Assembly: GCA_963726995.1 (NCBI GenBank)
Contig: CAVSEP010000004.1
Coordinates: 333,381-397,380, forward strand
Direction: 5' to 3'
Origin: an uncultured Pseudomonadota bacterium
GTDB taxonomy: Bacteria; Pseudomonadota; Gammaproteobacteria; Steroidobacterales; Steroidobacteraceae
Length of the DNA stretch: 64,000 nt
The position numbers were made by a program, and so were the translations under genes. How positions within the stretch are numbered: the stretch's first letter is position 1; each line of letters starts with the position of its first letter. A model generated the notes under the pieces. It had not been told where the DNA came from, searched no databases, and was given only the letters and a program-made list of their open reading frames with translations. Shown in pieces: positions 3,101-64,000 of this stretch.

Positions 3101-3103
3101 GCG

Positions 3104-6189: not shown

Positions 6190-6316
6190 CGATACTGAAC
6201 TCCGGCCGAACAGTCTTCTTCGATGCCGCAGCCGACATCGAGGACGAATAATTGAGGAGAGCACTTGATCATGACGCGTCGCGTGCCGGCGGATAGAACA
6301 TCCGGATCCCTAAAGC

Positions 6317-12006: not shown

Positions 12007-12319
12007 CGCACACTCTCTTCACATAGCCAACGTTATTACTTGGATCGCCCGTGCTCTGCGGGGAGTGGCGGCCCACGCCCATCGCAGGCCGTCCGTCAAT
12101 ATACCTGGAGTCGGCCCTGGCGGTTGTGTCGGGCTGGTAGGTCCGTTCGCGAATCCGACGATGACGATCATTGTCATATGGGCCGAGGCGCGGAGCGAGC
12201 AGCAGAACACGGGCCGTTCCGAGCCGGAAGCCGATCGCAAAGACGATGACCGCGTAAGCGACTCCGGCCTTCGCGGTCGACGCAAACAGTTGGCCCATAC
12301 GTTCCGTCATCGGCGGCAT
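11993..12319 (-). pseudogene. probable truncated remnant of a small membrane-protein gene
   Basis: The first 45 aa or so (MGQLFASTAKAGVAYAVIVFAIGFRLGTARVLLLAPRLG) look like the N-terminus of a small two- to four-TM protein family. After this the sequence turns hydrophilic and unrelated, and neither alternative frame restores hydrophobic helices. Confidence 0.25.
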
Positions 12320-12375: not shown

Positions 12376-12704
12376 CTATGAATTTGTAGTATAGGGACCT
12401 CGTTCGACTCCCACCCCAGCCTTCAGAATCGAAGTACCTGTCCTCAGGAATCGGGGGAGGCTACGTACGTTCGACGGAATAGACACGTGATCGACGAGCG
12501 CCTGGCCAAGCACAAGATTCCACGGCGCGTCGAGTACTCCGAGATGAACTTCAAATGACCGGCTAATTCTTGCAGCAGTCAACGGCAGCATGGTCAGGAA
12601 ATCCGCGCTCTCGGCACTCATCGCACCTCCGTTCTGCTGCAACGTGCTGCGCAGACCGGCGCCGCATCGATCCACTCGTCGGTATCCACCAGAAACACGA
12701 TCAG
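12376..12704 (-). pseudogene. decayed PIN-domain (VapC/FitB-like) toxin gene
   Basis: A PIN-like N-terminus (L)IVFLVDTDEWIDAAPV starts at the antitoxin stop (CTGATC/GTG at 12704-12696) but hits a stop after about 22 codons. A C-terminal-like segment (NLVLGQALVDHVSIPSNVRSLPRF) continues in a different frame to 12376. Confidence 0.35.
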
Positions 12705-12886
12705 CCTCGGCGATCGACTTGCTCTTTGGCAAAGTCCTTGTCGCGGCCGACGTTCGGCATAGAAGCCGGTACATCAGCCAGGGCTCGTCGCCGGGGGCCT
12801 TGAAGCGCAGACTGAAGAACTTCCCGATGTTCCTGCTCAGCGCTGCGGTTGTGCTTTGCTGCGCGCTGCCGCAAGTTAGGTTTCAT
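12701..12886 (-). pseudogene. 5'-truncated FitA/VapB-like ribbon-helix-helix antitoxin gene
   Basis: LRQRAAKHNRSAEQEHREVLQSAL...ASMPNVGRDKDFAKEQ matches the RHH antitoxin pattern. The N-terminal beta-strand (TIRNL-type) is missing, and the reading frame runs into the 3' end of the FtsX gene (12876). Confidence 0.5.
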
Positions 12887-14066
12887 GCAGTGCATTGGCG
12901 ATGCTGGCACGGGCGGCGCGAATCGCCGGAAAGGAGCCGCCCAGGAGGCCCAGCGTACAGGCCAAGCCGACAGCAATTGCGATCAGGGACGGGGTGATGT
13001 CGAGCGCGTAGACCAGTTGTGAGTCGAATAGCGCGCCGCCCAGAGTGCTGATCTCCAGGCCATTGAAGGCTGCAAAGGCGATGGCAACTCCGATGGCGGC
13101 GCCGACCAGGGCGAGCAGCAGCGCCTCGCTCAATATTGATGCGGCCACGGCCGTGGCGGAAAAGCCGATCGCGCGCAGCGTGGCGATTTCGACGCTGCGG
13201 GCGGCCACGGCCGAGTGCATGGCATTCTGGGCGCTGAAGAATGCGCCGATGGCCATGATGGAGCCGATGGCATAGGTCACCAGCCGCAGCATCCGGTTGA
13301 TGGAAGCGGCGGCGCTGGCCAGATATTCGGGTTCCGATCGCACCACCGCCGACAGGGTCGGCTGGGCCGCGAGGTTGTTCGCGACGATGCCCAGCGACTG
13401 CGGCGAAGTCAGCATGGCGGATACGGTACGGGCCGCAGCAAACTTGTAGGCCAACATCAAGGTCTTGAGGTCGGCGACCAGCTCCGATTCCCGGGACCCG
13501 TTGCCGCCCGCGAAGCGGCCGACGATGGTCCAGTCGCCTCCCTGCAGGCGCAGCCGATCACCAAGCTCCAATCCCGCGAACTGGTTGCGCGCCGCCGCAC
13601 CCACCAGCAGTTCCTGGGTCCCGGGATGCAGCATCCTGCCGGCGACCAATTTGAGTTCGGGGCGAATGGCGAAATACTGTTCGCCGACTCCACGTAGTGT
13701 GACGTTGACATCGGAGTTGTCGCGCTTGCGGGCGACCGGTGCCTCCACGACCAGTTCCGCGGACACCATTGGCCGATCGCTTGCGTCGCGCCTAATCCCG
13801 GGTGCGTTGCTGATGGCAGCAATATTCTCCAGGGACAGGCTGCTGTCGGATTCATCGGTTGCAGTCCTGGACATCACGATGGCGCGATCGGCGCGGCCAT
13901 CGGCGCTGATCGTGTGCCGGAAGTTGACATACATGGTGAGCACGGCCAGCAGCACCCCGACGACACCGGCAATGCCGACCACGATGACCAGCGAGTTTCC
14001 GAGGCGCCGCGGCAGGCTTCGCAAGCTGAGCGCGGTCACCACCAATAGCTGGGTCGGTACCTTCAT
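12876..14066 (-). CDS. FtsX/MacB-family ABC permease (single module, 4 TM, large periplasmic domain); no ATPase in its operon
   Basis: TM1 (LVIVVGIAGVVGVLLAVLTMYV), an extracytoplasmic domain of about 220 aa, then three TMs with the FtsX core (IATLRAIGFS) and the typical C-terminus PAIRAARASIANALHET. Confidence 0.85.
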   Translation of the reverse strand: MKVPTQLLVVTALSLRSLPRRLGNSLVIVVGIAGVVGVLLAVLTMYVNFRHTISADGRADRAIVMSRTATDESDSSLSLENIAAISNAPGIRRDASDRPMVSAELVVEAPVARKRDNSDVNVTLRGVGEQYFAIRPELKLVAGRMLHPGTQELLVGAAARNQFAGLELGDRLRLQGGDWTIVGRFAGGNGSRESELVADLKTLMLAYKFAAARTVSAMLTSPQSLGIVANNLAAQPTLSAVVRSEPEYLASAAASINRMLRLVTYAIGSIMAIGAFFSAQNAMHSAVAARSVEIATLRAIGFSATAVAASILSEALLLALVGAAIGVAIAFAAFNGLEISTLGGALFDSQLVYALDITPSLIAIAVGLACTLGLLGGSFPAIRAARASIANALHET

Positions 14067-14070
14067 GGCC

Positions 14071-15213
14071 TCACCGTCTGCGCAGCGAGATTACGATGGA
14101 CATCCGTGCCAGCTTCGCGGCTGGCAGCGCGCACCCCAGCAAGGCGAGCAAGGCGGCGCAGGTCACGCCGCCGGCCACCACGGCGGGCGACACGAATATG
14201 GTGCCGACATCTTCCCGCGCCAGGGGCGCGAGGACATAGGCCAGGGCCAATCCCAGCAGGGCGGGCGGCAGGCACAGGCACAGCGCCTCGGCAAACGCCA
14301 GGGCCAGGATTCCCCGGCCGCTGAATCCCAGGGTCTTCAGGACCGCGAACTCGGGGAGTCGCTGATCCAGGGATTGCCGCAGGGTGTTGCCCGTCACGAA
14401 GGCCAGCGTGAACATCACCGCCACCATGATGGCGTCGGTGAAGAGGGCCACATCGCCCATCTGCTTGGCCTGGTTCTCGGCACGCTCCTGCATCGAGCGG
14501 GTGTGGGTCTCGTGGGAGGAGTTGGCAAAGATCCGGTCGATGGCCGCACCGGTGGCGATTGCCTTGGTGGGATCGGCAATGCGTACGTAGAAGATTTCCG
14601 CACTATCGCGATTCGCGGCGCGGTAGCCGTTCAAATACTCGTAATTGATGATCGCGAAATAGCTGTTGGCGCCGGGGGTGGTGAAGGTGCCGACGATCCT
14701 AAAGGTCCAGATCCCGTTGCCGTCGGTCTTCAGGATATCCGACTGCAAGGGGACGGTATCGCCGACCTTCCACCCATACTGCTTCAGCAACAGCTGCGTC
14801 GCCAGCATGCCGTTGCGGGTGGTGCGCATTGCCGCCAGGCTCCCCGGGGACGCAACGATGGCCGGCAGGACATCGAAGAAGACATCCGGAAAAGTGCCGA
14901 GCGCCGCGAGGTAGTTTCCGGGATCGGCGCCGCGGGCGTTGCCCGTGAAATAGGCGCGTGGCGCAACTTCCCTGATGCCCGGAATGCGTCGGATCTCGTC
15001 CATGGCGGCAATCGGCATGGGTGCCCCGCCACGAACGCGGGTATTGACCACCAGGGATTCCCGATGGGCATTGGCGATCGCCCGGGTAAATCCCGCATTG
15101 ACTCCCTGCAGCAGACCGAACAGTAAGAATGCGATGACCACGGAGAGTCCGGTGAATACGGTCCGCGCGGGCCTTCGCCACAGACCGGCCCACACTAACG
15201 GCAGGAACTTCAT
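14071..15213 (-). CDS. FtsX/MacB-family ABC permease (single module, 4 TM); no ATPase in its operon
   Basis: MKFLPLVWAGLWRRPARTVFTGLSVVIAFLLFGLL start (ATGA overlap with the kinase stop). FtsX core FAVLKTLGFS and C-terminal PAAKLARMSIVISLRRR. Confidence 0.85.
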   Translation of the reverse strand: MKFLPLVWAGLWRRPARTVFTGLSVVIAFLLFGLLQGVNAGFTRAIANAHRESLVVNTRVRGGAPMPIAAMDEIRRIPGIREVAPRAYFTGNARGADPGNYLAALGTFPDVFFDVLPAIVASPGSLAAMRTTRNGMLATQLLLKQYGWKVGDTVPLQSDILKTDGNGIWTFRIVGTFTTPGANSYFAIINYEYLNGYRAANRDSAEIFYVRIADPTKAIATGAAIDRIFANSSHETHTRSMQERAENQAKQMGDVALFTDAIMVAVMFTLAFVTGNTLRQSLDQRLPEFAVLKTLGFSGRGILALAFAEALCLCLPPALLGLALAYVLAPLAREDVGTIFVSPAVVAGGVTCAALLALLGCALPAAKLARMSIVISLRRR

Positions 15214-16589
15214 GGCAGGGCCGGCAGGGCCTGCGGAAATCTCAGGCTGAAGACACAACCGCGGCCGGTCGCCGAGCGAACCGAGATCGAGCCGCGATTC
15301 AGCTGCACCAGCTGCCGCGAGACACTCAGGCCCACGCCGGTGCCGTTGCGCTTGGTGGTGAAGAACGGGACGAAGATACTGTCGAGATGCTCCGGCGGTA
15401 TGCCGCCGCCGTTGTCGATCACCTGCACCTGGATTTCGTTCTGGGTGCTATGTGCGGCACGTACCACGATGCGTGGCTCAGCCGCTGTCTCGAGCGCCTC
15501 GATGGCATTGCGCAGCAGATTGATCAGCACCTGTTCGATCTGTCCGGCGTCCACGCTGATGCCCAACGGGTCCCCCGCGCATTGGATCTCCAGCGAAATG
15601 CCGCGCGCGCGCAGATCCTGGGACAGCAGCACGCGTACCCGCTCAAGCAGCGAGCGAACCTCGACAAACGCGAATGAGGCTTGCGGCAACTTGGAAAAGC
15701 CGCGATAGGCACGCACGAAATCCAGCAGGCCGCGACTGCGGGTGTGGATGGCGGTCACGCTTCGCAGCATGTCGCTTTGCTGTTGCGGCGACAGGGCGCG
15801 CGCCGCGGGTGTCGGGGCGGCCTCATCAATCATCGTCTCGCGCACCAGGCCGCTCAAGGAAATGATCGGCGTCACTGAGTTCATGATCTCATGCGTCAGG
15901 ACGCGAATGAGTTTCTGCCAGGAATCGGTTTCCTGCCGGTCGAGCTCCTGGCGGATATTCTGGAAGGACACCAGCTTGTAGCTGCAGCCCAGGAGTTCGA
16001 AGGTGGTCGTGTACAGCAGCAACTGCAGGTTGTCGTCGTCCCGCTGCACCGCCAGCAAAGTGCGCTCGCCATCGGTGGATTTGCGCAGCATCTCCGGCAG
16101 GCGCTCATCGATACGCGCGAATGTCTGCCAGCTGTTCAGGTAGGGCAGGCGAAAGAGCTCCCGGGCGGGCTTGTTCATCATCTTGACGTAGCCATGCTCA
16201 TCCAGACAGCACAGGGCCACGCTGACATGTTCGACGACGGCTTCCAGGTATTGCAGGTTGGCGGCCTTCTGCAGGTTGAGCCGCCGGAACTCCTCGCTCA
16301 GGAAGTGATAGGCGGATTGCAGTTCGGTGAACGTCGCCCCCTTGTCCGGCAACGTTATCGGCGTCGAATAGTCGTGATGCGCCACGAAGCTCAGGAAATT
16401 GGAGAAATCCCGGACCGTGCGCTCGACATAACGGATGAGCTCGGCGGCGCTGACGGCAATCAGCGCGAGGCACGCCAGGGGAGTCGCCAGCCAGCTGGTG
16501 TTGACGATGCCCCAGACCAGGATCAGGCACAGCGCGATCAGCAGCAGCACCCGCAGCAGAACGTTGACGCGAAAGTTATTGAAGCTCAT
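15210..16589 (-). CDS. sensor histidine kinase with two N-terminal TMs and almost no periplasmic loop (intramembrane-type), PAS-like linker, HisKA and HATPase domains
   Basis: TM1 and TM2 are separated only by NTSW. H-box LTHEIMNSVTPI, N-box LLRNAIEA, G1 VIDNGGGI and G2 GTGVGLSVS. Confidence 0.85.
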   Translation of the reverse strand: MSFNNFRVNVLLRVLLLIALCLILVWGIVNTSWLATPLACLALIAVSAAELIRYVERTVRDFSNFLSFVAHHDYSTPITLPDKGATFTELQSAYHFLSEEFRRLNLQKAANLQYLEAVVEHVSVALCCLDEHGYVKMMNKPARELFRLPYLNSWQTFARIDERLPEMLRKSTDGERTLLAVQRDDDNLQLLLYTTTFELLGCSYKLVSFQNIRQELDRQETDSWQKLIRVLTHEIMNSVTPIISLSGLVRETMIDEAAPTPAARALSPQQQSDMLRSVTAIHTRSRGLLDFVRAYRGFSKLPQASFAFVEVRSLLERVRVLLSQDLRARGISLEIQCAGDPLGISVDAGQIEQVLINLLRNAIEALETAAEPRIVVRAAHSTQNEIQVQVIDNGGGIPPEHLDSIFVPFFTTKRNGTGVGLSVSRQLVQLNRGSISVRSATGRGCVFSLRFPQALPALP

Positions 16590-17943
16590 AGCGCGTCATC
16601 TTGCGGTACAGGGTGGTGCGGCTCAGTCCCAGGGACAGCGCGGCCTTGCTCAGGTTTCCCTGATGCAGGGCGATGGCCTTCTGGATGGCCTGCTTTTCCA
16701 AGGCCTCGAGATTCAAGGTCGCAGGTTCCGGTACATTGGGGTGCGCGAACGGCAGATCATCCAGATGCAGCGGGCCGCGCTCATGCATGATGACCAGGCG
16801 TTCGATGACATGCCGCAGCTCACGCACGTTGCCCGGCCAGTGATATTGCTTGAGCCGGCGAACCGTCGCCGCGTCGAATCCCGGTTCGGGCTTGTGGTAC
16901 TTGCGCGCGAAGACGCGGGCGAAGTGTGTGGCGATCGCCGGGATGTCATCGGCGCGCTCGCGCAGCGCCGGCACCCGGATCTCGATGGTGTTGATGCGGT
17001 AGAGCAGGTCCTGGCGGAACTGCGCGCCGGCGCGCAGCTCCGCGGCGGAAAGATTGGTGGCGCAGATCAGGCGCGCATCGATCTTTATGGGACGGTCGGA
17101 GCCAACGCGGCTGACCGTCATGCTCTCCAGGGCGCCCAGCAACTTGGCCTGCATGGCGAGACTGAGATTGCCGATCTCATCCAGAAACAGCGTGCCGCCC
17201 CGGGCAACCTCGAAGCGCCCGGCACGATCCTCGCGCGCATCGGTAAAGGCGCCGCGCCGATGGCCGAACAGCTCGGACTCGAACAGGTTCTCGGATATCG
17301 CCCCGAGATCCACGCTGACGAACACCTGCCCCTGGCGCAGTGACTGCCGGTGAATCTCCCTGGCCACGAGTTCCTTGCCCGTGCCGTTCTCACCCAGAAT
17401 CAGCACATTGGCTTCGGTGCGGGCGACCTTGGCGATTCTGGAGAGTACCTGTCGCAGCGCGTCTGAGTCGCCGATGATCTGATCCACATCGGGCGAGGGG
17501 AATTCGTTCAACGTGCGCTGCCGGCTTTGCAGGCTGGCGACTTCCCGATCGGCCCGGGCGAGCCGCGCGACGGTGGAGACGGTGGCCACCAGCTTGGCGT
17601 TGTCCCAGGGCTTCACGACGAAATCCGCCGCGCCCTCGCGCATGGCGTTCACGGCCGTCTCGATGCCACCGTAGGCGGTCATCAGGATGATCTTGGTGTC
17701 CGGGGCAATGGCCTGCACGGTTTTCAGCCAGTCGATGCCTTCGCGGCCGGAGGTCGCCCCGACCGAGAAATTCATGTCGAGCAGGATCGCATCGAAGGCT
17801 CGCTGGGACAGCAGTGATTTGATCTGGCCGGGGTCGGAGGCCGTGACCACTGTCTGAAAATGACCTTTCAGAACCAGCTCGGCCGCGAGCAGCACTTCCG
17901 AATCATCGTCGACAATCAGGATGTCGCAGGGCTGCAGTTTCAT
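16576..17943 (-). CDS. sigma54-dependent response regulator (NtrC/AtoC family enhancer-binding protein)
   Basis: Receiver domain (ILIVDDD...LLDMNF), AAA+ domain (GENGTGKE, variant sigma54-contact loop GAFTDA, LFLDEIG) and a C-terminal Fis-type HTH (LGLSRTTLYRKM). The start is taken at MKLQPCDILIVDDD rather than the longer track ORF. Confidence 0.9.
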   Translation of the reverse strand: MKLQPCDILIVDDDSEVLLAAELVLKGHFQTVVTASDPGQIKSLLSQRAFDAILLDMNFSVGATSGREGIDWLKTVQAIAPDTKIILMTAYGGIETAVNAMREGAADFVVKPWDNAKLVATVSTVARLARADREVASLQSRQRTLNEFPSPDVDQIIGDSDALRQVLSRIAKVARTEANVLILGENGTGKELVAREIHRQSLRQGQVFVSVDLGAISENLFESELFGHRRGAFTDAREDRAGRFEVARGGTLFLDEIGNLSLAMQAKLLGALESMTVSRVGSDRPIKIDARLICATNLSAAELRAGAQFRQDLLYRINTIEIRVPALRERADDIPAIATHFARVFARKYHKPEPGFDAATVRRLKQYHWPGNVRELRHVIERLVIMHERGPLHLDDLPFAHPNVPEPATLNLEALEKQAIQKAIALHQGNLSKAALSLGLSRTTLYRKMTRYELQ

Positions 17944-17973
17944 GGCTCGGAGACTGTCCAGGTTGTACCGTAG

Positions 17974-17992
17974 TGGAACACAAACTGTTTCA
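17974..17992. promoter_or_regulatory. imperfect inverted repeat TGGAACA-N5-TGTTTCA, candidate enhancer (UAS) site
   Basis: 6/7 matching arms. It lies about 100 bp upstream of the sigma54-like promoter element in the divergent intergenic region. GGAAC recurs at 17996-18000. Confidence 0.25.
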
Positions 17993-18085
17993 TTTCGGAA
18001 CGATCGAGTCAGGCCGTGGCCTGCAGGCCGCATCACCCGGGTGTGCTAACTCATTGAATCAGTGAGTTTCTTCGCCTGGTGTGGC

Positions 18086-18102
18086 CCTGGCATGCATCTT
18101 GA
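18086..18102 (+). promoter_or_regulatory. sigma54 (-24/-12)-like promoter element CTGGCATGCATCTTGAT
   Basis: Matches YTGGCACGrNNNTTGCW at 15/17 positions with correct GG/TTG spacing. The -12 element reads TTGA instead of TTGC. It points into the HlyD-ABC operon next to a sigma54 activator gene. Confidence 0.35.
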
Positions 18103-18105
18103 TCT

Positions 18106-19407
18106 ATGAGATACCCATGCATGGATAGGACCATAGAAAAAAAGGGCTGGTCGCCGGCCAGGTGGGCGATCAGCGCGGCCGTGGGACTGGTTGCCCTGGG
18201 CGTCATCTGGCAGCTGATCAGCCGCGCGGGCACATCGCGGCTGAGCGTCGACCCATCGCGCCTCACGACGGCGCAGGTGCGCACGGGGGAGTTCCTGGAC
18301 TACTACCCCTTCGACGGCACGGTGCAGCCGGCGACCTCCGTATATCTGGATGTCGAGGAAGGCGGCCGGGTCGAACAGATCGTCGACGACGGCGGCCAGC
18401 ATGTGCAGAAGGGCGACCTGATCCTGCGGTTTTCAAACCCTACGCTGGAGCGCAACACCATCCAGACGGAAAGCACGCTGCTGTACAACCTGGACATCCA
18501 GCGCAGCACCCAGCACGACCGGGCGCAGAACGTCAATCTGCTGAAGGAAACGCTGCTCGAGCTTGATCACGAGATCCTCGACGCGCAGAACAAGGATCGG
18601 CGCTACGCGCGGCTGATCAAGGATGGCAATACCGCCATCTCGCAGGAGCAGTTCGAGACCCAGCACAACCAACGGGAGTACCTGCAGAAGAAACGCGAGT
18701 TGATGGCCGAGCGCATCCGTCAGGAAGACAGCGCCAGCGCCAGGGAAATCGCCGAAGCGCAGAAGTCCATCGATTCAGAGCTCACGAATCTGAAAATGCT
18801 GCAGCAGATCAAGCAGAGTCTGGAGGTGCGGGCGCCGATCTCCGGCTATCTGTCGACCATCGACGCCCAGGTCGGACAGAACATCAATGCGGGCCAGCGC
18901 ATCGGCCAGATCGACCTGCTGGACAAACTCAAGGTGAATCTGAGCATCGATCAGTTCTACATAAGCCGCGTGCAGGTCGGCACCATCGGCCACGTGAATC
19001 TGGATGGGCGCAACTGGGACGTGAAGATCCAGAAGATCTATCCGGAGGTCAAGAACAGCGCCTTCGCGGCCGACGCCGTGTTCATCGGTGAGACGCCCGA
19101 ATCGCTCAAGCGCGGCCAGACCCTGACCATCGAGCTCACCTTCGGCGCGCCCTCGCATACGCTGATCGTGAACAAGGGCAGCTTCTACCAGGAGACCGCC
19201 GGCCGTTGGGTGTACCTGCTTGCCAAGGACGGCCGCAGCGCGCGCAAGGCCCAGGTTCGCCTCGGCCGGCAGAATCCGCTGCAGGTCGAGGTGCTGGACG
19301 GCCTGCGCGAAGGCGACCGCATCATCACCTCCGGCTACGACACCTTCAACAGCGTCGACGAACTGCAATTCACCGAGTCGATAAACACCAATCGGGGCAG
19401 CACATGA
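18106..19407 (+). CDS. HlyD-family periplasmic adaptor
   Basis: MDRTIEKKGWSPARW plus a TM segment, a coiled-coil (QREYLQKKRELMAERIRQ...), then barrel domains. The real start may be the second ATG at 18121. ATGA overlap with the next gene. Confidence 0.85.
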   Translation: MRYPCMDRTIEKKGWSPARWAISAAVGLVALGVIWQLISRAGTSRLSVDPSRLTTAQVRTGEFLDYYPFDGTVQPATSVYLDVEEGGRVEQIVDDGGQHVQKGDLILRFSNPTLERNTIQTESTLLYNLDIQRSTQHDRAQNVNLLKETLLELDHEILDAQNKDRRYARLIKDGNTAISQEQFETQHNQREYLQKKRELMAERIRQEDSASAREIAEAQKSIDSELTNLKMLQQIKQSLEVRAPISGYLSTIDAQVGQNINAGQRIGQIDLLDKLKVNLSIDQFYISRVQVGTIGHVNLDGRNWDVKIQKIYPEVKNSAFAADAVFIGETPESLKRGQTLTIELTFGAPSHTLIVNKGSFYQETAGRWVYLLAKDGRSARKAQVRLGRQNPLQVEVLDGLREGDRIITSGYDTFNSVDELQFTESINTNRGST

Positions 19408-20087
19408 TCATTGAAACTGAGAACCTGAAGAAGATCTATCGCACTGAAGTGGTGGAGACCACGGCCGTGAACGATATCAACTTCTCCTTGAGTCCCGGAC
19501 AGTTCGTTTCGGTGATGGGCCCCTCCGGATGCGGCAAATCCACGCTGCTGCACGTGCTGGGCCTGATCGACAGTCCGAGCGGCGGGCGCTACCGCTTCAT
19601 GGGCGAGGATGTCTCGGGATACCCGGAGCGGCGGCGCGCCAAGATCCGCAAAGCCCACATCGGCTTCGTGTTTCAGAGCTTCAACCTCATCGATGAACTG
19701 ACGGTGTTTGAGAACGTCGAATTGCCACTGATCTACGCGGGTGTGGCCGCCCACGATCGCAAGAGCCGCGTCGAGGGGGTGCTGGAGAAGATGGACATCG
19801 GGCACCGTCGCGGGCACTTCCCGGCGCAGCTGTCTGGCGGCCAGCAGCAGCGCGTGGCGGTCGCAAGGGCCCTGGTCAACCGGCCCAATGTGATCTTTGC
19901 CGATGAGCCGACCGGCAACCTGGATTCGGAGCACGGCGAGGAGGTCATGAAGATGCTGCTCAAGCTCAATGAGGAAGGCACCACCATCCTGATGGTGACC
20001 CATTCGGCGACCAATGCGGCCTACAGCGGCCGGATAGTCAGCCTGCTGGACGGCAAGATCGTTTCCGACAAGTCGGCCGGGCGCTAG
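19404..20087 (+). CDS. ABC transporter ATP-binding protein (MacB/LolD-like)
   Basis: Walker A GPSGCGKST, Q-loop, signature LSGGQQQRVAVARAL and Walker B VIFADEPTGNLD. The start is the ATG at 19404, not the long track ORF. Confidence 0.9.
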   Translation: MIIETENLKKIYRTEVVETTAVNDINFSLSPGQFVSVMGPSGCGKSTLLHVLGLIDSPSGGRYRFMGEDVSGYPERRRAKIRKAHIGFVFQSFNLIDELTVFENVELPLIYAGVAAHDRKSRVEGVLEKMDIGHRRGHFPAQLSGGQQQRVAVARALVNRPNVIFADEPTGNLDSEHGEEVMKMLLKLNEEGTTILMVTHSATNAAYSGRIVSLLDGKIVSDKSAGR

Positions 20088-20090
20088 GCC

Positions 20091-22544
20091 ATGCGCAACT
20101 ATCTGCTGGTGCTGCTCAGAACCCTGCAGCGCGAGAAAGTCTACGCCGCAATCAATATCGCGGGGCTGTCACTGGGCGTGGCGTGCTGCCTGCTGCTGGG
20201 CCTGTTCCTGTGGAGTGAACTGACCTATGACCGGCACTTCGCCAACCACGAGCGCATCTACCGCATCGAGAACGAATTCGACATCGCCGGCGCACACGAT
20301 CGATTCTCGATCACCTCGCGGGCGCTGGGGCCCATGCTGATCGCCGACAATCCCATCATCAAGGCCTTCGTGCGATTCCAGAGCAATGGTTCCGGGATCG
20401 GCAACAGCGGGGGCGTGGCCATCCATCACGGCACGGATACCTTCTACTGGGACAACTCCTACTACGTCGATGACAATGTGTTCGACGTGTTCTCGCACAA
20501 GATCATCGCCGGAGATCCCAACACGGCGCTGAAGGATCCCTCGTCCGTTGCCATCAGTGAAACGGTGGCCCGGAAGTACTTTGGCAACGCCAATCCGGTC
20601 GGCGAGACACTCACGACGGATGCCGGCCTGCCGGCCCGCGTGACGCTGGTGTTCGCCGATCTGCCGCCCAACACACATCTTAAGTACGATCTGCTCTTTT
20701 CGGGCAACGCCCCGTTCCTGCGTGACCCGGACAATCCGACCGTGCGGCGCCAGACGCTCTTTGGCGTCAATTCCTATACCTACCTGCTCATGGCGCCGGG
20801 ATTTGATCCCAAGAGCTGGCCGCGCATCAGCGATGAGTTCTTCAAGCGCTACATGGCGGATACGGCCAAGACCATCAAGGCCACCTGGTCCAGCTGGGTG
20901 CAACCGCTGACGTCGGTTCACCTGCATTCCACGGCGAACTACGATCGGCCCAATGGCAATCCGGTGTACCTGTATGGCTGTGCGGCGGTGGCGCTGTTCA
21001 TCCTGGTGGTGGCCTGCATCAACTACATGAACCTCGCCACGGCCCGGGCGATGCGCCGCGCCCACTCGGTGGGCATCCGCAAGATACTGGGCGCCAGCCG
21101 CCTGTCCCTGGGGCTGCAGTTCCTGGGCGAGGCGGTGCTGTTTTCGCTGCTGGCGCTCATCATCGGCGTGGTGCTGGTGGAGGTCTCCTTGCGGCTGACC
21201 AATATCAATTCACTGCTGGGCCAGCAGGTCAGCCTGGACCTGGTGCACCATCCGGCGTTGATCGCAGCGCTGATCGGCTTCGGGCTGCTGATGGGGCTGC
21301 TGTCGGGATTCTACCCGGCCGTTTACCTGTCCTCCTGGGCGCCGCTGTCCGCGCTCACCAGCAAGCATGCGGCAGGCAAAGGCAACCTGCGGTTCCGTGA
21401 AGCACTGGTGCTGACGCAGTTCACGATTTCGGTGGCGGTGATCGCCTGCACCATCCTCATGGCAGCCCAGATGCGCTATGTCGCCGGCAAGTCCCTAGGC
21501 TTCCAGAAGGAGAACCAGGTGGTCGTCACACTGCGCGGGGTGGCCACCATCGACCGGATCAGCACCATTCGCACGGAGCTGGCCAAGAACGGCCATGTGC
21601 TGGGCACCGCCGAGGCCTCGATCCTGATGGGGCAGACCCCCAGCATGAACGTCATGCAGCTGGAGAACAACGCCGGCGTGGTCACCCCGGTCACGAGTGC
21701 CAACGTCGCAATCGGCGAAGACTTCGTGAACGTAATGGGACTGAAGATCGTGCAGGGGCGCGACTTCTCGAAACGACTGCTCACCGATGTGGGTACGAAT
21801 GTCCTGGTGAACGAAGCCATGGTCCGAAAAATGGGCTGGAGCGAGCCGCTGGGCAAGCGTGGTCAGATGGGCAACCAGAGCGGACACGTGGTCGGCGTCG
21901 TACAGGATTTCAATTTCAAGTCGCTGCACACCCTGGTCGAGCCGCTGCTGATGTTTCCGCTGGTGGACAATTTCGGGCAGGTGCCGGAGATATTCCGCCC
22001 CACCGTGCAGCGCCTGTTGGTCGTGAAGATCTCAGGCACCGAGGTGGACAAGACGCTCGCCTATATAGAAAGTGTGATGGCAAAGGCCGATCCCAAGCAT
22101 CCATTCCAGTACCAGTTTCTCGATGACTCGCTGGATCAGCTGTATAAGTCCGAACACCAGCTCACGCGGCTGATCGGGATATTCTCGGTGATCTGCATCT
22201 TCATCGCCTGCCTGGGGCTGTTTGGACTCGCGTCCTTCACCACTGAGCAGCGCAGTCGCGAGATCGGCACCCGCAAGGTGCTGGGCGCTTCGGCCTGGCA
22301 GATCATCACCCTGCTGGCGCGCCGCATCCTGCTGCTGGTGGTGATCGCCTCGGTGCTGGCGGCCGTCATTTCCTACTTCGCCATCGATGAGTGGCTGACC
22401 GGATTCGCGTATCGGGCGGGAATCAATCCGCTGATATTCGTGCTCGCGGCCGTGGTGGCGGCCATCGTGGCATTCGTTACCGTGGCGCTGCAGTCGTACA
22501 AGACCGCCAGCGCCGATCCGGTAGATGCCCTGCGTCAGGTCTAG
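20091..22544 (+). CDS. duplicated FtsX/MacB-family permease (817 aa, two FtsX modules)
   Basis: Two TM1, extracytoplasmic domain and 3-TM units. FtsX cores IRKILGASRLSL and TRKVLGASAWQI. C-terminus KTASADPVDALRQV. Confidence 0.9.
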   Translation: MRNYLLVLLRTLQREKVYAAINIAGLSLGVACCLLLGLFLWSELTYDRHFANHERIYRIENEFDIAGAHDRFSITSRALGPMLIADNPIIKAFVRFQSNGSGIGNSGGVAIHHGTDTFYWDNSYYVDDNVFDVFSHKIIAGDPNTALKDPSSVAISETVARKYFGNANPVGETLTTDAGLPARVTLVFADLPPNTHLKYDLLFSGNAPFLRDPDNPTVRRQTLFGVNSYTYLLMAPGFDPKSWPRISDEFFKRYMADTAKTIKATWSSWVQPLTSVHLHSTANYDRPNGNPVYLYGCAAVALFILVVACINYMNLATARAMRRAHSVGIRKILGASRLSLGLQFLGEAVLFSLLALIIGVVLVEVSLRLTNINSLLGQQVSLDLVHHPALIAALIGFGLLMGLLSGFYPAVYLSSWAPLSALTSKHAAGKGNLRFREALVLTQFTISVAVIACTILMAAQMRYVAGKSLGFQKENQVVVTLRGVATIDRISTIRTELAKNGHVLGTAEASILMGQTPSMNVMQLENNAGVVTPVTSANVAIGEDFVNVMGLKIVQGRDFSKRLLTDVGTNVLVNEAMVRKMGWSEPLGKRGQMGNQSGHVVGVVQDFNFKSLHTLVEPLLMFPLVDNFGQVPEIFRPTVQRLLVVKISGTEVDKTLAYIESVMAKADPKHPFQYQFLDDSLDQLYKSEHQLTRLIGIFSVICIFIACLGLFGLASFTTEQRSREIGTRKVLGASAWQIITLLARRILLLVVIASVLAAVISYFAIDEWLTGFAYRAGINPLIFVLAAVVAAIVAFVTVALQSYKTASADPVDALRQV

Positions 22545-22576
22545 ACCTGAGGAACTGCGTTCATAGGAGTTTTGCA

Positions 22577-23650
22577 ATGAAGATGCGCTCAAGATTCTTC
22601 GCGCTGCTGGCGGCGGTGCTGTTGACCGGTGTGGCCCTGGCGCAGCAGCCGGCGGCCGCGCCGCAGGACCTTGCGGGTACCTGGCAGGGCAAGCTGCAGG
22701 TGGACCCAAAGACGGCCATGACCATCCGGTTCACCTTCACGAAGAAACCCGACGGCAGCTATGCGGCCGTCCTGAACTCGCCGGACAACGCCAGCATCAA
22801 GGATGTGGCGGCAGACTCGGTGCTGTGGAAGGCCGGGGCCTTGAGTCTTCAGGTCCCCTCGCTCAGCGGGTCATTCGCCGGCACGCTCGGCGCGGGTGCG
22901 ATCAGTGGCCAGTGGAAGCAGCCCGGGGGTGCACTGCCTCTGGTGCTGGCCCGCTATGAGAAGGCGCAGATTTCCAAGGCGGCCACCAGCATTCTGGTCG
23001 GCAGCTGGAACGGCCCCTTGGGCACGCCGCAGCCCAGCCTGACGTTCCTGATCGACTTCAAGCTCGATGACAAGGGTCAGCTGCAGGGCAGCCTGAAGTT
23101 CGCCGAACAGAATGTACCGGTACCGCCGTTTTCGGATATCGAGTTTGCCGACAACAAGCTGACCGCAAACATCCAGATGCCGAACGGCATTCCGGGGCAG
23201 TACTCGGCGACCTATGCCAACGGCGTGCTCACCGGCGTGTGGCGCGCAGGAAATCCGCTGCAGCCGCCGGCGGGCGTGCCGCTGGTGCTGAAGAAGGGCA
23301 CCTTCGTTCCCGTCGTGCATGTCCTTAAATTGAGCGCGGAAAGCTTCGGCCAGCTCGCCGGCACCTGGAATGGTGATTTGCAGGCGACCGGGCCGCAGGG
23401 CCCGGTGACGATTCCGCTGGTGCTGCGATTCGAGACCAACAAGAATGCCGACATGGTGGCATTCATCGACAGTCCGAAGCAGAACGCCATGAATCTGCCG
23501 GTGCTGGAGGCCACCCTGGCCGCGGGGAAGCTGATGATCAAGGTCGGCCTGGTCAACGGCGAGTATGACGCGACGCTGTCCGGCAATTCCCTGACCGGTG
23601 AGTGGAAGCAGGGGCCTGGTGTCTTGCCGTTGACGATGACCCGGAAATAA
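22577..23650 (+). CDS. secreted protein made of three tandem modules of about 110 aa (G[TS]W.G.L ... G.W.Q pattern)
   Basis: Signal peptide MKMRSRFFALLAAVLLTGVALAQQ. The modules start at LAGTWQGKL, LVGSWNGPL and LAGTWNGDL, and each ends in ...G.W[KR]QG...PL.L... The gene lies 32 nt after the permease gene. Confidence 0.75.
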   Translation: MKMRSRFFALLAAVLLTGVALAQQPAAAPQDLAGTWQGKLQVDPKTAMTIRFTFTKKPDGSYAAVLNSPDNASIKDVAADSVLWKAGALSLQVPSLSGSFAGTLGAGAISGQWKQPGGALPLVLARYEKAQISKAATSILVGSWNGPLGTPQPSLTFLIDFKLDDKGQLQGSLKFAEQNVPVPPFSDIEFADNKLTANIQMPNGIPGQYSATYANGVLTGVWRAGNPLQPPAGVPLVLKKGTFVPVVHVLKLSAESFGQLAGTWNGDLQATGPQGPVTIPLVLRFETNKNADMVAFIDSPKQNAMNLPVLEATLAAGKLMIKVGLVNGEYDATLSGNSLTGEWKQGPGVLPLTMTRK

Positions 23651-23677
23651 TCAAAGTTCCCGACGGAGGGATGTCAC

Positions 23678-24733
23678 ATGAGAATCCGAAATTGTCTGGC
23701 GGCCCTGGCGGCGATGTTCTGCCTGGCCGGGTGGGCCGCAACGCCTGCCTGGTCCCAGGAGCTTGCGGGCACCTGGCAGGGCAAGCTGCAGGTGGACCCG
23801 AAGACCGTCATGACCATTCAGTTCACCTTCGCGAAGAAGGCCGACGGCAGCTACTCCGCCGTGCTGAATTCGCCGGACAATGGTGCCCTGAAGAACGTCT
23901 CGGCGGACTCGGTGTCCTTGAAGGCCGGCGCGGTCAGCGTGCAGGTGGCCGCGCTCAGCGGCGGCTTCGACGGCACCCTCAGCGCCGGAAGCATCAGCGG
24001 GCACTGGAAGCAGCCCGGCGGCACGCTGCCTCTGGTTCTCAGTCCCTACCAGCGGCCGGTGTTCTCGAAGGCGGCCCTGGATACTCTCGTTGGCTCTTGG
24101 AACGGCCCGATATCGGCAGGCGGCAACAGCATGACCTTCGTGGCGCAGTTCAAGGTCGACGACAAGGGTGCCCTGCAGGGAACCCTCGCCGTTCCCGAGC
24201 AGGGAGGCAGGCCGCTGGACATGGCCGATATCCAGTTTGCCGACAGCAAGCTCACCTTCAAGATTCCGATCGTCTCGGGCGAGTTCAACGGGGCGCTTGC
24301 CAATGGCGCGTTCAACGGCCTATGGCGCCAGGGCAATCCCCTGCAGCCCCCGGAAGGCGTTCCGGTGGTGCTGAAGAAGGGAGAATTCGTCGCGAAGGTC
24401 CAGGTGCTGAAATTGAGCGCCGAATCCTTCGGCAAGCTGGCCGGATCCTGGACGGGAGAGCTCAACGTGCCGGGTCCGAACGGTGAAGTGGTCATCCCGG
24501 TCGTGTTGCGCTTCGAGACCAACCAGCAAGCCGCCATGGTCGGTTTCTGGGATGTGCCCAGCCAGGGCGCCAAAGGCATTCCCGTCTCTGAGGCCAGCCT
24601 TGAGGCGGGTAAGTTGGTGATCAAGGTACCCGCCCTGAACAGCGAGTATGATGCGAATCTCTCCGGCAATACCCTAAGCGGGCAGATGTCACAGGGGCCG
24701 GGCAGCTATGCCCTGACCCTGACGAGAAAGTAG
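23678..24733 (+). CDS. paralog of the preceding secreted triple-module protein
   Basis: Same architecture, about 60% aa identity by eye. Signal peptide MRIRNCLAALAAMFCLAGWAATPAWSQ. The first 40 nt or so of the mature region are nearly identical to the upstream paralog. Confidence 0.75.
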   Translation: MRIRNCLAALAAMFCLAGWAATPAWSQELAGTWQGKLQVDPKTVMTIQFTFAKKADGSYSAVLNSPDNGALKNVSADSVSLKAGAVSVQVAALSGGFDGTLSAGSISGHWKQPGGTLPLVLSPYQRPVFSKAALDTLVGSWNGPISAGGNSMTFVAQFKVDDKGALQGTLAVPEQGGRPLDMADIQFADSKLTFKIPIVSGEFNGALANGAFNGLWRQGNPLQPPEGVPVVLKKGEFVAKVQVLKLSAESFGKLAGSWTGELNVPGPNGEVVIPVVLRFETNQQAAMVGFWDVPSQGAKGIPVSEASLEAGKLVIKVPALNSEYDANLSGNTLSGQMSQGPGSYALTLTRK

Positions 24734-24774
24734 GCGCACAGCCCGGCCCGCAAGCACGCGGACGGGGAGGGGCG

Positions 24775-26253
24775 ATGCGGGTACATCGATTCGTTTCGAG
24801 CATGACCCTTGCATTGCTGACCTGTTCGATGGGGTGGCCCTTCGAAGCGGGGGCCGACGACTACTCCGATGCTCTGATGAGAAGCGAGTTCCTGTTGAAG
24901 AACGCGCAGCTTCAACTCTGCTTTGATCTGCAGCAGTCGGCGCCGAAGCGGCTTGCGTCCTGTACGTGGATCTTGGACCGGGAGACGCTGCAGAACGACC
25001 AGTACCGGATGGTCTACGTGGCGCGGGCACAGGTCTACCAACAAAGCGGCGATGATCGCGCGGCCTTGCACGATCTGAATGCCGCGGTGAAGGTCGATCC
25101 CAGGAGCCTGCAGGCCCGGATCGCGCGCGGCACCTATTTCGCATCCAAGGCGGACTTTGCGGCTGCCATGGCAGACTTCAACGCCGCGGTGGCCGATCAT
25201 CCCAAGGATGCCGTCGCTTACAACAGCCGCGGAGCTGGGCTGCATACCTTGGGCAAGGATGCGGAGGCGATTGCGGACTTCAGCCGCGCGATCGCACTCG
25301 ATCGCCATGACCTGAAGGCGTATTCGAATCGCGCCACCGCGGCAGTTGCGGCGGGGCAGCTGGACCTGGCCATCGCGGACCTCTCCGAGGTACTGAGGGT
25401 CAAGCCCGACAATGGCATGGCCTTCTATAACCGGGGTACGGCCTACGATCTGCATGGAGAGACCGACAAGGCCCTGGAGGACTACCGCAACGCCGTGCGT
25501 CTGCAGCCAAGGTATGCCCCGGCACTCGCGGCGCTCGGGCGGCTGCTCAGGAGCAAGGATCCGGACGCCGCCGTTCACGAATTGAGCGAGGCCATCAGGC
25601 TTGACCCGCGCTCTCCGGCACTCAGGAGCCGTGCCATCCTCTACCTGTCGATGGGTCGACTCGACACGGCAATCTTGGATTTCGACCAGGTCATCGCCAA
25701 TGATGGCTCCGATGCCATCGCCTACCTCGATCGTGGCGTGGCCAACGAGAAACTGGGCCGGCTGAACGACGCCATCCGCGACTTCTCCCGCAGCTACGAA
25801 TTGAGCCCCACGGTGGCCGTGCAGGTGAATCGCGGTAATGCCTACGCTCAGCTGGAGCAGCCGCAGAAGGCCTTGCTGGATTTCAACGCGGCACTGGTCA
25901 CAGAGCCGAAGAATCCTCTGGCCCTGATCGGCAGGGCCAACGCGCACTATGCGCAGCAGCTGAGGGCGGAAAGTCTTGAAGACTACACGCGGGTCATCGA
26001 AGTGGATCCGAACAATGCCATCGCCTATTTCAAGCGCGGCAATGTGCACCTTGACCTGCAGGAATTTGCCGCGGCCTTCAGCGACTATTCGAGCAGCCTC
26101 AAGCTCGCTCCGGACCAGGCCGTGGTGCTCTATAACCGGTCGATTGTCGCAGCCCGCCTGGGGCGCCGCAAAGAGTCTGCCGAGGACCGCCGTCGGGCGC
26201 TTGGGCTGGATCCGGAACTGGGCCACGGTGAAGCGCTCTCGCGGGGGAAATGA
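24775..26253 (+). CDS. secreted tetratricopeptide-repeat protein (about 10-11 TPRs)
   Basis: Repeated A..Y..RG.....G....A..DF..A..L.P pattern throughout, with an N-terminal signal-like segment. Confidence 0.8.
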   Translation: MRVHRFVSSMTLALLTCSMGWPFEAGADDYSDALMRSEFLLKNAQLQLCFDLQQSAPKRLASCTWILDRETLQNDQYRMVYVARAQVYQQSGDDRAALHDLNAAVKVDPRSLQARIARGTYFASKADFAAAMADFNAAVADHPKDAVAYNSRGAGLHTLGKDAEAIADFSRAIALDRHDLKAYSNRATAAVAAGQLDLAIADLSEVLRVKPDNGMAFYNRGTAYDLHGETDKALEDYRNAVRLQPRYAPALAALGRLLRSKDPDAAVHELSEAIRLDPRSPALRSRAILYLSMGRLDTAILDFDQVIANDGSDAIAYLDRGVANEKLGRLNDAIRDFSRSYELSPTVAVQVNRGNAYAQLEQPQKALLDFNAALVTEPKNPLALIGRANAHYAQQLRAESLEDYTRVIEVDPNNAIAYFKRGNVHLDLQEFAAAFSDYSSSLKLAPDQAVVLYNRSIVAARLGRRKESAEDRRRALGLDPELGHGEALSRGK

Positions 26254-26475: not shown

Positions 26476-26576
26476 AGGCTTTCGACTCCCCGCTGGCTCG
26501 ATCGCGACCGTATCACATCGGCCTGGCGGTGATCTTTCCCGGAGTTTTGCGTTCGGCCGATTCATATGCTACTTTG

Positions 26577-26588
26577 TGTAGCACTACA
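26577..26588. promoter_or_regulatory. TGTAG-N2-CTACA inverted repeat, candidate BlaI/CopY-type operator
   Basis: The palindrome TGTAGCACTACA lies 16 nt upstream of the blaI-like ATG. Further TACA/TGT half-sites flank it (CTACTTTGTGTAG, ACAGGATGT). Confidence 0.35.
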
Positions 26589-26603
26589 GGATGTCGCAGT
26601 TAT

Positions 26604-26984
26604 ATGAAGCAGATTCCGACGGATCTGGGTGAGCTTGAGCGCGAGGTGCTGGAGTTGGTCTGGCGGTTGGGACAGACCACGGCCGAACAGATCCGCCAGG
26701 CGCTGAAACGGTCGCTGAAGGAATCCACCGTGCGCACGGTGTTGAGCCGCCTGGAGCAGAAGGGCTTTCTGGTGCATGAGGTGGAGCAGCGAACCTTCAT
26801 CTATCGGGCCGCGACCCCGCGTGCTGATGTTACCTCGCGTGCCGTGCAGCGCATCGCCGATTGGTTCTGCAAGGGATCGGTCGATGAGGTGCTGCTGGGC
26901 ATGGTGGAAGCAAAGGTCATCGACCAGCGGGATCTGCAGCGCCTTATCGCCAAGATCGAGAAACTTAAGACGGGGGACAAGTAA
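26604..26984 (+). CDS. BlaI/MecI/CopY-family winged-helix repressor
   Basis: LGELEREVLELVWRLGQTTAEQIRQAL...STVRTVLSRLEQKGFL... is the typical penicillinase-repressor fold sequence. The stop overlaps the start of the M56 gene. Confidence 0.85.
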   Translation: MKQIPTDLGELEREVLELVWRLGQTTAEQIRQALKRSLKESTVRTVLSRLEQKGFLVHEVEQRTFIYRAATPRADVTSRAVQRIADWFCKGSVDEVLLGMVEAKVIDQRDLQRLIAKIEKLKTGDK

Positions 26985-55155: not shown

Positions 55156-55227
55156 AGCGCGGCGCCGACAGCCGGCAATTCTACCCCGGGGATGGCGATA
55201 AGCCACTGACTTTGCGAGACTGCGACC

Positions 55228-63954: not shown

Positions 63955-64000
63955 CGGCTTCCTGTTCCGCCTTGGTCTCCAGCAGGTAACCGAAGCCGCG
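63947..64000 (-). CDS. 3' end of an OmpR-family response regulator (runs off the window)
   Basis: Translates to ...RGFGYLLETKAEQEADA*, the typical winged-helix C-terminus. ATGCCTGA overlap with the kinase start. Confidence 0.55.
   Translation of the reverse strand, partial: RGFGYLLETKAEQEADA

Follow-up and report, generated by a model that had tools for sequence, protein, structure and literature searches.

A locus at positions 12876-26253 of the 64,000-nucleotide stretch analysed here—the window, taken from contig CAVSEP010000004.1 of an uncultured Steroidobacteraceae bacterium (GenBank assembly GCA_963726995.1)—is probably a member of a widespread module in which an NtrC-type two-component system controls a divergently transcribed MacB-type tripartite efflux operon through sigma-54. 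Each part of the locus belongs to a known family, but the complete module is both widespread and experimentally uncharacterised. To this conserved module the window adds an orphan-permease cassette, a second copy of sec (a gene for an exported beta-barrel protein) and a gene for a TPR protein. The features of the locus, with lengths in amino acids (aa), are as follows:

12876-14066, minus strand: ftsxA, 396 aa, single-module MacB-type permease with four transmembrane (TM) helices and a periplasmic MacB_PCD domain; Pfam MacB_PCD and FtsX; second gene of the cassette
14071-15213, minus strand: ftsxB, 380 aa, single-module FtsX permease; Pfam FtsX; first gene of the cassette
15210-16589, minus strand: histidine kinase, 459 aa; two-TM hairpin, juxtamembrane linker, PAS-like region, H-box (H233) and HATPase_c
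16576-17943, minus strand: NtrC-family response regulator, 455 aa; REC, AAA+ (Sigma54_activat) and HTH_8 domains; GAFTDA loop
17974-17992, no strand assigned: candidate enhancer, palindrome TGGAACA-N5-TGTTyCA with a third GGAAC half-site, proposed from conservation
18088-18103, plus strand: putative sigma-54-type promoter, TGGCAT-N5-TTGAT, proposed from conservation and orientation bias
18121-19407, plus strand: HlyD-family periplasmic adaptor (hlyD), 428 aa; Pfam HlyD_D23/HlyD_3; homologues of 428-429 aa
19404-20087, plus strand: ABC ATPase, 227 aa, of the LolD/MacB-NBD/DarD type; Pfam ABC_tran
20091-22544, plus strand: fused-dimer MacB-type permease (ftsx817), 817 aa; two modules, each MacB_PCD plus FtsX
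22577-23650, plus strand: sec1, 357 aa, exported; three calycin-like eight-stranded beta-barrel repeats; paralogue of sec2; P0267
23678-24733, plus strand: sec2, 351 aa, exported; three calycin-like beta-barrels; conserved partner gene after the duplicated permease
24775-26253, plus strand: TPR protein, 492 aa, exported; Pfam TPR

The ten genes are real and their order is not a product of chance, since the same order was found in many genomes; open reading frame (ORF) listing, translation and domain scans agree almost exactly with the gene map given in the first-pass annotation of this DNA. The junctions were read directly. The reading frames of the response regulator and kinase overlap by 14 nt and the kinase stop and ftsxB start overlap as ATGA, while ftsxB and ftsxA lie 4 nt apart, so that the earlier description of the minus-strand genes as all overlapping holds for two of the three junctions and fails for the last. 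On the plus strand, hlyD and the ATPase gene are joined by an ATGA overlap, followed by gaps of 3, 32, 27 and 41 nt from the ATPase through to the TPR gene. The minus arm encodes no ATPase and domain scans show that at 19404-20087 as the sole one in the locus, in keeping with the annotated ratio of one ATPase to three permeases. The catalytic motifs of the kinase, regulator and ATPase are all intact, as judged from translations and alignment, and the best matches carry Steroidobacteraceae names.

The case for a module rests first on its recurrence. Twelve kinase homologues were aligned and the alignment was used to fetch 80 related loci (L001-L080) from contigs of a one-genome-per-species collection, each with a full-length kinase match at 32-57% identity; these came from Bacteroidota, Ignavibacteria, Latescibacterota, Zixibacteria, Kryptoniota, Cloacimonadota, Acidobacteriota and Gammaproteobacteria. 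The ten window proteins were mapped onto the 80 loci using phmmer and then hidden Markov models, and the count of synteny was restricted to the 63 loci with enough upstream flank. The regulator-kinase pair lies directly divergent from hlyD, the ATPase gene and/or a duplicated FtsX gene in 46 of these 63, spanning at least six phyla (with Bacteroidota, Ignavibacteria, Latescibacterota, Zixibacteria, Acidobacteriota and Gammaproteobacteria among them). Because of this shared layout, the two arms of the window locus make up one evolutionarily conserved module. That the arms form a single regulatory unit had been proposed previously, and is borne out both by the layout and by a -24/-12 element that faces the pump operon; the same survey of 80 neighbourhoods upholds the earlier statement that similar clusters are common in Bacteroidota and Acidobacteriota.

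The element in question is TGGCATGCATCTTGAT, at 18088-18103 on the plus strand. Its counterparts at the homologous position are TGGCAY-N5-TTGAT in L081, L082 and L001, and TGGCAC-N5-TTGTT in L002. Of 51 intergenic regions compared across the module, 32 have a TGGCAY-N5-N[TG]G box directed at the transporter and four have one directed at the response regulator; a strict-TTG version of the box gives 15 against 1. Only 12 of the 34 candidate promoter sites have the canonical -12 C. Independent support comes from an in-silico regulon survey of 2025, which reports an excess of sigma-54 promoters ahead of genes for FtsX permeases (COG0577) in Gammaproteobacteria, Opitutia and Bacteroidia and termed the connection between sigma-54 and COG0577 FtsX permeases a previously unrecognised axis (PMC12316311).

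The palindrome TGGAACA-N5-TGTTCCA is common to the window, L081, L082 and L001, with one mismatch in the window copy. It sits at 17974-17992, 30-50 bp upstream of the regulator start and ~100 bp upstream of the -24/-12 box, is the sole match in the window at one mismatch or fewer, and is taken as a candidate enhancer for the response regulator. Among the related loci checked, it is not conserved beyond the Steroidobacteraceae clade; the enhancer sequence is therefore clade-specific. On the far side of the promoter, the hlyD ORF spans 18106-19407, but its first ATG (18106) is not shared by relatives, which point instead to M6 at 18121 (MDRTIEKKGW) as the conserved start, so that the hlyD mRNA is predicted to be nearly leaderless, with an unusually short leader of less than ~10 nt, and to lack a Shine-Dalgarno sequence (18101-18123). 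The spacing from promoter to hlyD is identical in L081 and L082 and longer in L001 and L002.

The regulatory proteins have equally consistent features. A hydrophobicity scan of the kinase finds hydrophobic segments only at residues ~10-28 and ~34-52, with N30-T-S-W33 between them: two TM helices, a loop of 4-5 residues and no periplasmic domain, which is the build of an intramembrane-sensing kinase of the Bce type. All 80 related kinases share an N-terminal FR motif, two TM helices and a loop of 3-6 residues, followed by a strongly conserved segment after TM2 (YVE+TNR.L..FL.SI+..DFS), and none has a periplasmic domain, so topology in the window kinase and its relatives agrees with the claim that it has no periplasmic sensor. 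The catalytic motifs are invariant across the aligned homologues. Of the solved structures, ZraS comes closest to the catalytic domain, which also gives good scores with the ZraS and AtoS models. Evidence for the PAS-like region comes from a match to PAS_8 (E 7e-4; 19.8 bits, under the cutoff of 21.8) and from alignments to AtoS and PhoR, which span kinase residues 111-453 and include the PAS regions of those proteins; the conserved 60-residue linker has no match in Pfam.

For the response regulator, Pfam gives PF00072, PF00158, PF25601 and PF02954 (REC, Sigma54_activat, AAA_lid and HTH_8). The long ORF begins at 18036, and the start was set at M32 (17943) because homologues are 455 aa. The protein has the REC, AAA+ and Fis-type helix-turn-helix domains expected of the family and departs from it in the sigma-54 contact loop, where it lacks the canonical GAFTGA. 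The first-pass annotation was right to read GAFTDA here, but the substitution is no peculiarity of the window: GAFTDA is found in 62 of 77 regulators of the family, GSFTDA in seven, GAYTDA in five and GAFTGA in one, and, because of this distribution, the aspartate is a conserved family variant and not a sign of decay. Together with the non-canonical -12 elements, the GAFTDA loop may reflect co-adaptation of activator and promoter.

On the transporter side, the adaptor matches HlyD_D23 and HlyD_3 and scores 123.9 bits against TIGR01730 (RND_mfp), above the cutoff of 94.9, which places it among the HlyD-type membrane fusion proteins. The 817-aa permease matches PF12704 and PF02687 twice each, as expected of a MacB-type FtsX protein with periplasmic core domains, and has eight hydrophobic segments arranged 1+3 / 1+3 around two periplasmic loops of ~240 aa. 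Its nearest solved structures are MacB (5nik, 5lil and 5gko) and Spr0695 (5xu1), with no match to BceB. The permease has no nucleotide-binding domain (NBD) fused to its N-terminus, in contrast to MacB of E. coli; the ATPase is encoded by its own 227-aa gene. Outer-membrane factor (OEP) genes occur inside the pump operon in L088, L012, L030, L045 and L051.

Two curated identities were considered for these proteins and rejected. Against NCBIfam, the 817-aa permease scores highest with ADOP (acidobacterial duplicated orphan permeases, TIGR03434), at 248 bits against a cutoff of 622, and an ATPase gene lies 3 nt upstream of the permease gene. The DarBCD models (NF038007/8/10) likewise score below their equivalog cutoffs—DarD, which is the nearest NCBIfam model of the ATPase, at 273 against 375 bits, DarC at 156 against 450 and DarB at 100 against 700—and there are no genes for ribosomally synthesised and post-translationally modified peptides nearby, which speaks against a darobactin exporter.

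Numbers of permeases per ATPase vary across the module. Thirteen loci carry two or three full-length duplicated permeases. The transporter arm frequently has one ATPase only, and in four Bacteroidota loci (L012, L030, L045 and L051) the two-component system faces hlyD-atp-OEP with no permease in the operon, so the permeases of these four must be encoded elsewhere. Such variable ratios and permease-less loci, together with the ATPase-less cassettes described below, suggest that the sigma-54-controlled adaptor and ATPase may act as an engine shared by several permeases; the ratio of one ATPase to three permease units in the window would then be normal for the family.

A kinase blind to the periplasm, with a conserved TM hairpin and linker throughout its family and tight and wide linkage to transporter genes, also invites the idea that it forms a complex with the 817-aa permease and ATPase and reads their transport activity, so that induction tracks the load on the pump and not the compound itself; this would make the locus a Gram-negative, sigma-54-wired analogue of BceRS-AB. 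For permeases of the FtsX family (Type VII), the Bce precedent is established (PMC11009047, PMC9169098). We nevertheless hold such flux sensing by the main pump to be unlikely. The permease is of the MacB type, with eight TM helices and two periplasmic domains, and not of BceB architecture; the PAS-like cytoplasmic region could itself be the input of the kinase; 17 of the 63 related two-component loci have no pump genes within 2.5 kb (in two of these, L063 and L064, pump genes lie 6-7 kb off, and other neighbours that were checked are unrelated); and the four loci with hlyD-atp-OEP are regulated with no permease in cis.

The sec proteins are the least familiar part of the pump operon. Sec1 and sec2 are ~60% identical and each consists of three repeats of ~110 aa that are 23-26% identical among themselves; in all, 332 members of the family could be detected, the number of repeats ranging from three to five. 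It corresponds to no family in Pfam or NCBIfam, and a search of PDB sequences with the sec profile gave nothing meaningful. AlphaFold2 models whole sec2 as three beta-barrels (pLDDT 87). Foldseek matched the whole protein to DUF3598, BF2706, TbpB, the haemophore HphA and MucB/LolA-like folds with low TM-scores; because these low scores stemmed from domain orientation, a single sec2 repeat was modelled, giving an eight-stranded up-and-down barrel (pLDDT 93.8) whose best Foldseek matches are fatty-acid-, bile-acid- and retinol-binding proteins (TM-scores 0.55-0.66, E ~4e-3). The gene directly follows the duplicated permease in every context examined (L001, L002, L079 from Acidobacteria, L081, L082, L087 and L088), with an OEP gene following sec in L088, and is absent from most Bacteroidota members of the module. 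Given this fixed position and the barrel fold, sec is a conserved periplasmic accessory of the pump operon, and its modelled structure is that of a possible carrier for a hydrophobic ligand.

The secreted-protein tail recognised in the first-pass annotation is thus genuine as far as sec is concerned, whereas the second sec copy and the TPR gene are specific to the window. The TPR gene may not belong to the system, as it is missing at the matching position in L081, L082, L087 and L001. As a separate observation, a gene for a serine hydrolase of the beta-lactamase family directly follows a four-repeat sec homologue in L087 (L087:10445-11737) and, by analogy with YbbAP-TesA, may point to an enzyme as periplasmic partner. 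Another orphan FtsX gene starts at the end of that locus, ~9 kb beyond the same sec homologue on its downstream side (L087:19241-19395).

A barrel fold like that of lipid-binding proteins, fixed in the operon, could also belong to a system that, like DevBCA or DarBCD, is devoted to exporting a product of the cell itself (a lipid, glycolipid or peptide), with sec carrying the cargo across the periplasm and the PAS-like region of the kinase sensing a cytoplasmic or metabolic cue. The nearest curated families in NCBIfam are indeed DarBCD and DevA/DevB, the kinase has such a region, and Type VII ABC systems that have LolA and TesA as periplasmic partners provide a precedent (PMC12646458). Export of an endogenous product is nonetheless very unlikely: the scores of those curated families fall far below their cutoffs, biosynthetic genes are missing from the flanks of the locus, both in the window and in relatives, and sec is missing from most Bacteroidota members.

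The ftsxB-ftsxA pair has a history of its own. Downstream of the kinase, with the same ATGA junction as in the window, the pair is found in L081 (kinase 77% identical to that of the window) and in L089; it does not follow the kinase in L082/L083 (73%) or L001 (57%), and no gene resembling ftsxA or ftsxB follows the kinase in any of the 80 distant loci, even with relaxed thresholds. The kinase-fused pair was found only in the window, L081 and L089, that is, in a narrow sub-lineage of Steroidobacteraceae; ftsxB is 80% identical to the L081 gene at the same position. In a homologue search, ftsxA retrieved at least 120 clusters at 65-79% identity, nearly all of 396 aa. The three contexts sampled from elsewhere (L084, L085 and L086) hold a free-standing pair in the order B-A with no ATPase within 8 kb. 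The neighbours of free-standing pairs are TIR-TPR genes, a relaxase/NikA pair, and toxin-antitoxin and immunity genes, and two FtsX pairs occur inside one locus in a toxin-antitoxin/immunity context.

Upstream of these free-standing pairs lies a common, conserved stretch of ~130 bp that contains an extended -10 box (TGATATAAGT) and may serve orphan permease pairs as an operator or leader of their own. The stretch, seen at L084:2180-2400, L085:6644-6864 and L086:6644-6864, also has the invariant block GTGCxCGTGG...CCGTTGTG together with a ~90-nt leader. A search of Rfam returned no family for the leader of the free-standing cassette (a sub-threshold match at chance level only) and none on the window locus.

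At the other end of the pair in the window, one further feature abuts the ftsxA stop codon:

12803-12877, minus strand: FitA-like ribbon-helix-helix antitoxin remnant; Pfam PF22513, E 1.9e-8, profile positions 15-39 of 39

Having lost the first 14 positions of its profile, this remnant confirms the earlier statement that the left border of the locus cuts through a toxin-antitoxin gene, and it marks a rearrangement boundary, the outer edge of the FtsX-pair insertion. Two small ORFs further downstream of ftsxA (12376-12774 and 11993-12319) were judged non-coding, as they match no family and show no likeness to genes downstream of cassettes elsewhere. Because the pair is absent from distant loci, stands free in other contexts and has an insertion edge that cuts an antitoxin gene, we conclude from these sequence comparisons that it is an independent orphan-permease cassette, a recent addition that one sub-lineage has captured onto the two-component operon; the kinase family at large evidently works without it.

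As a side observation on the two-component genes, in L089, a metagenome-assembled genome from Steroidobacteraceae, the regulator is split into ORFs of 397 and 70 aa (L089:6079-8854) and the kinase lacks ~70 N-terminal residues, with the fused FtsX pair intact; these breaks would be either assembly frameshifts or a decaying two-component system beside an intact FtsX pair.

The reading offered in the first-pass annotation, that ftsxA and ftsxB serve as co-sensors of the kinase with the divergent pump and secreted proteins as output, is highly improbable: translational coupling of the kinase to ftsxB (ATGA), retention of the fusion in three genomes over 71-80% protein identity and periplasmic domains of ~215 aa on permeases whose partner kinase has none all favour it, but none of the 80 distant loci has the pair, and neither do the sister lineages (kinases at 57% and 73% identity), where a kinase of the same family evidently functions; elsewhere the pair occurs as an independent cassette, in unrelated surroundings and under a conserved promoter of its own; and in the fused lineage the kinase N-terminus is not visibly different from that of relatives. 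The idea of a Bce analogue survives in weakened form, as sensing through the main pump and not through the orphan pair.

Under the preferred reading, sigma-54-dependent control of a divergent efflux operon, the kinase—with its two-TM hairpin, linker and PAS-like region—would detect a signal from the membrane or envelope inside or at the membrane and, to judge from the intact H-box, receiver aspartate and AAA+ motifs, would phosphorylate the GAFTDA activator. The activator is predicted from conservation to bind the palindrome TGGAACA-N5-TGTTCCA and to open the promoter TGGCAT-N5-TTGAT, 18 nt upstream of hlyD, proposed from conservation and orientation bias. By analogy with their families, the adaptor, ATPase, permease and triple-barrel proteins would then clear the periplasm or outer leaflet of a hydrophobic or amphipathic compound, and efflux would proceed through an outer-membrane factor encoded elsewhere. 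The ATPase of this module family appears commonly to serve from zero to four cis-encoded permeases, and the ftsxB-ftsxA cassette most likely borrows the ATPase of the pump operon; the pair would thus be an extra output or client and not a conserved sensor.

Several results weigh against this account. A scan of the whole window for the sigma-54 consensus gave 31 matches, compared to 37.75 expected, with no enrichment, for which reason the assignment of the promoter leans on its position, conservation and orientation bias. The -12 element in the window is TTGA, not TTGC, and its -12 G lies only ~19 nt upstream of the conserved hlyD start. The 17 loci with no pump gene within 2.5 kb make up about a quarter of the 63. 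In the 64-kb window, phmmer with the OEP protein of L088 found no homologue of an outer-membrane factor, and our search of the literature on sigma-54, MacB, FtsX, intramembrane-sensing kinases and Gram-negative Bce analogues found no characterised homologue of the locus, the in-silico survey of 2025 being the only relevant paper. Finally, fusion of the FtsX pair to the kinase gene has outlasted 20-29% divergence of the proteins; so long-kept a fusion argues for some functional tie between pair and kinase, and, given this retention, co-expression of the pair with the two-component system is probably useful.

The wider interest of the module lies in the permeases that it regulates. Few transporter families of soil and gut bacteria, Bacteroidota, Acidobacteriota and Steroidobacteraceae among them, are as expanded or as poorly understood as the FtsX/MacB-type permeases, and many of these are orphans that lack an ATPase. 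Here, pumps of this kind are tied to a dedicated sigma-54 two-component system with a periplasm-blind kinase across at least six phyla. If the two-component system reads pump activity or controls a shared ATPase, this would explain what powers and regulates orphan permeases, and by what means diderm bacteria with no periplasmic receptor detect membrane-active compounds. The family-wide GAFTDA loop and the often non-canonical -12 elements offer a natural case for the study of co-adaptation between sigma-54 activators and promoters. A more ambitious synthesis—in which the core of regulator, sensor-less kinase, adaptor, ATPase and permease is a diderm, sigma-54-wired flux sensor of the Bce type, the ATPase and adaptor are a hub that powers orphan FtsX proteins including the captured pair, and the triple-barrel proteins are a new class of periplasmic partner beside LolA, TesA and EnvC—strikes us as rather unlikely as a whole.

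The G+C content of the locus, 0.615-0.64, equals that of its flanks (0.62-0.65), and the neighbouring genes for an AI-2E transporter and BlaI/BlaR are common to the window and L081, so the suggestion that the locus was acquired horizontally is not sustained: there is no compositional sign of recent acquisition. On a larger scale, G+C steps from ~0.62-0.65 in positions 1-30000, which hold the locus, to ~0.65-0.69 in positions 30001-64000. Beyond the TPR gene, the locus is closed by a gene pair at 26529-28153: first a BlaI-like repressor (Penicillinase_R), then an M56 peptidase of the BlaR1 type that ends in a TonB_C domain; in L081 the BlaI/BlaR pair lies on the opposite side of the locus, which indicates local rearrangement. 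A second, distantly related transporter set lies on the minus strand at 1886-6264 and comprises an ATPase (5461-6264), a 786-aa duplicated FtsX permease (3104-5464) and an HlyD protein (1886-3100); it has no adjacent two-component system and shows weak cross-matches. Elsewhere in the window there is a weak ABC-ATPase match at 55210-55851 (plus strand) with no adjoining FtsX gene, and a weak histidine-kinase match at the window edge (62587-63999, minus strand).

The locus can be compared with several known systems. Its regulatory pair resembles sigma-54 systems for envelope stress such as ZraSR, in which the response regulator is likewise an NtrC-family protein with REC, AAA+ and HTH_8 domains and whose ZraS is the solved structure nearest to the kinase catalytic domain; however, ZraS senses by means of a periplasmic domain that the window kinase lacks, and here the target is an ABC pump and the contact loop is GAFTDA instead of GAFTGA. 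Bce modules (BceRS-BceAB) similarly link an ABC transporter of the FtsX superfamily to a two-component system whose kinase has two TM helices and nearly no extracellular loop. BceB is built of ten TM helices and carries one large extracellular domain, placed between TM7 and TM8. The window permease differs in having eight TM helices and two MacB-type periplasmic domains, and is encoded with an adaptor; the response regulator is of the NtrC/sigma-54 type and not the OmpR type, the kinase has an added PAS-like region, and the host is a diderm, whereas Bce modules are described in PMC11009047 as a feature of Firmicutes.

The ftsxB-ftsxA cassette is reminiscent of ADOP and of the arrays of orphan FtsX paralogues in Bacteroidota, where FtsX permeases occur in many copies with no adjacent ATPase (PMC3914696); ADOP proteins are fused, whereas the window cassette is split into two single-module genes. 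The pairing of a MacB-type transporter with a dedicated soluble periplasmic protein is shared with LolCDE-LolA, YbbAP-TesA and FtsEX-EnvC, and LolA and TesA are known examples of periplasmic proteins that work with ABC transporters of Type VII (PMC12646458); the sec barrel, of a fold that binds hydrophobic ligands, has no sequence similarity to LolA, TesA or EnvC, and the window locus has an HlyD adaptor in addition. In its transporter arm the locus resembles MacAB-TolC and MacB-like Type VII pumps, with which it shares an FtsX/MacB_PCD permease, an HlyD adaptor and an ATPase of the LolD/MacB type, and from which it differs in its separate ATPase, fused 817-aa pseudo-dimer and lack of an outer-membrane factor in the locus. 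A two-component system divergent from such a pump is also known from Stenotrophomonas maltophilia, as MacRS and macABCsm (PMC10295115), and the window locus has the same arrangement. To pumps of the MacAB type it adds a sigma-54 bacterial enhancer-binding protein with GAFTDA, a periplasm-blind kinase and a periplasmic triple-barrel protein.

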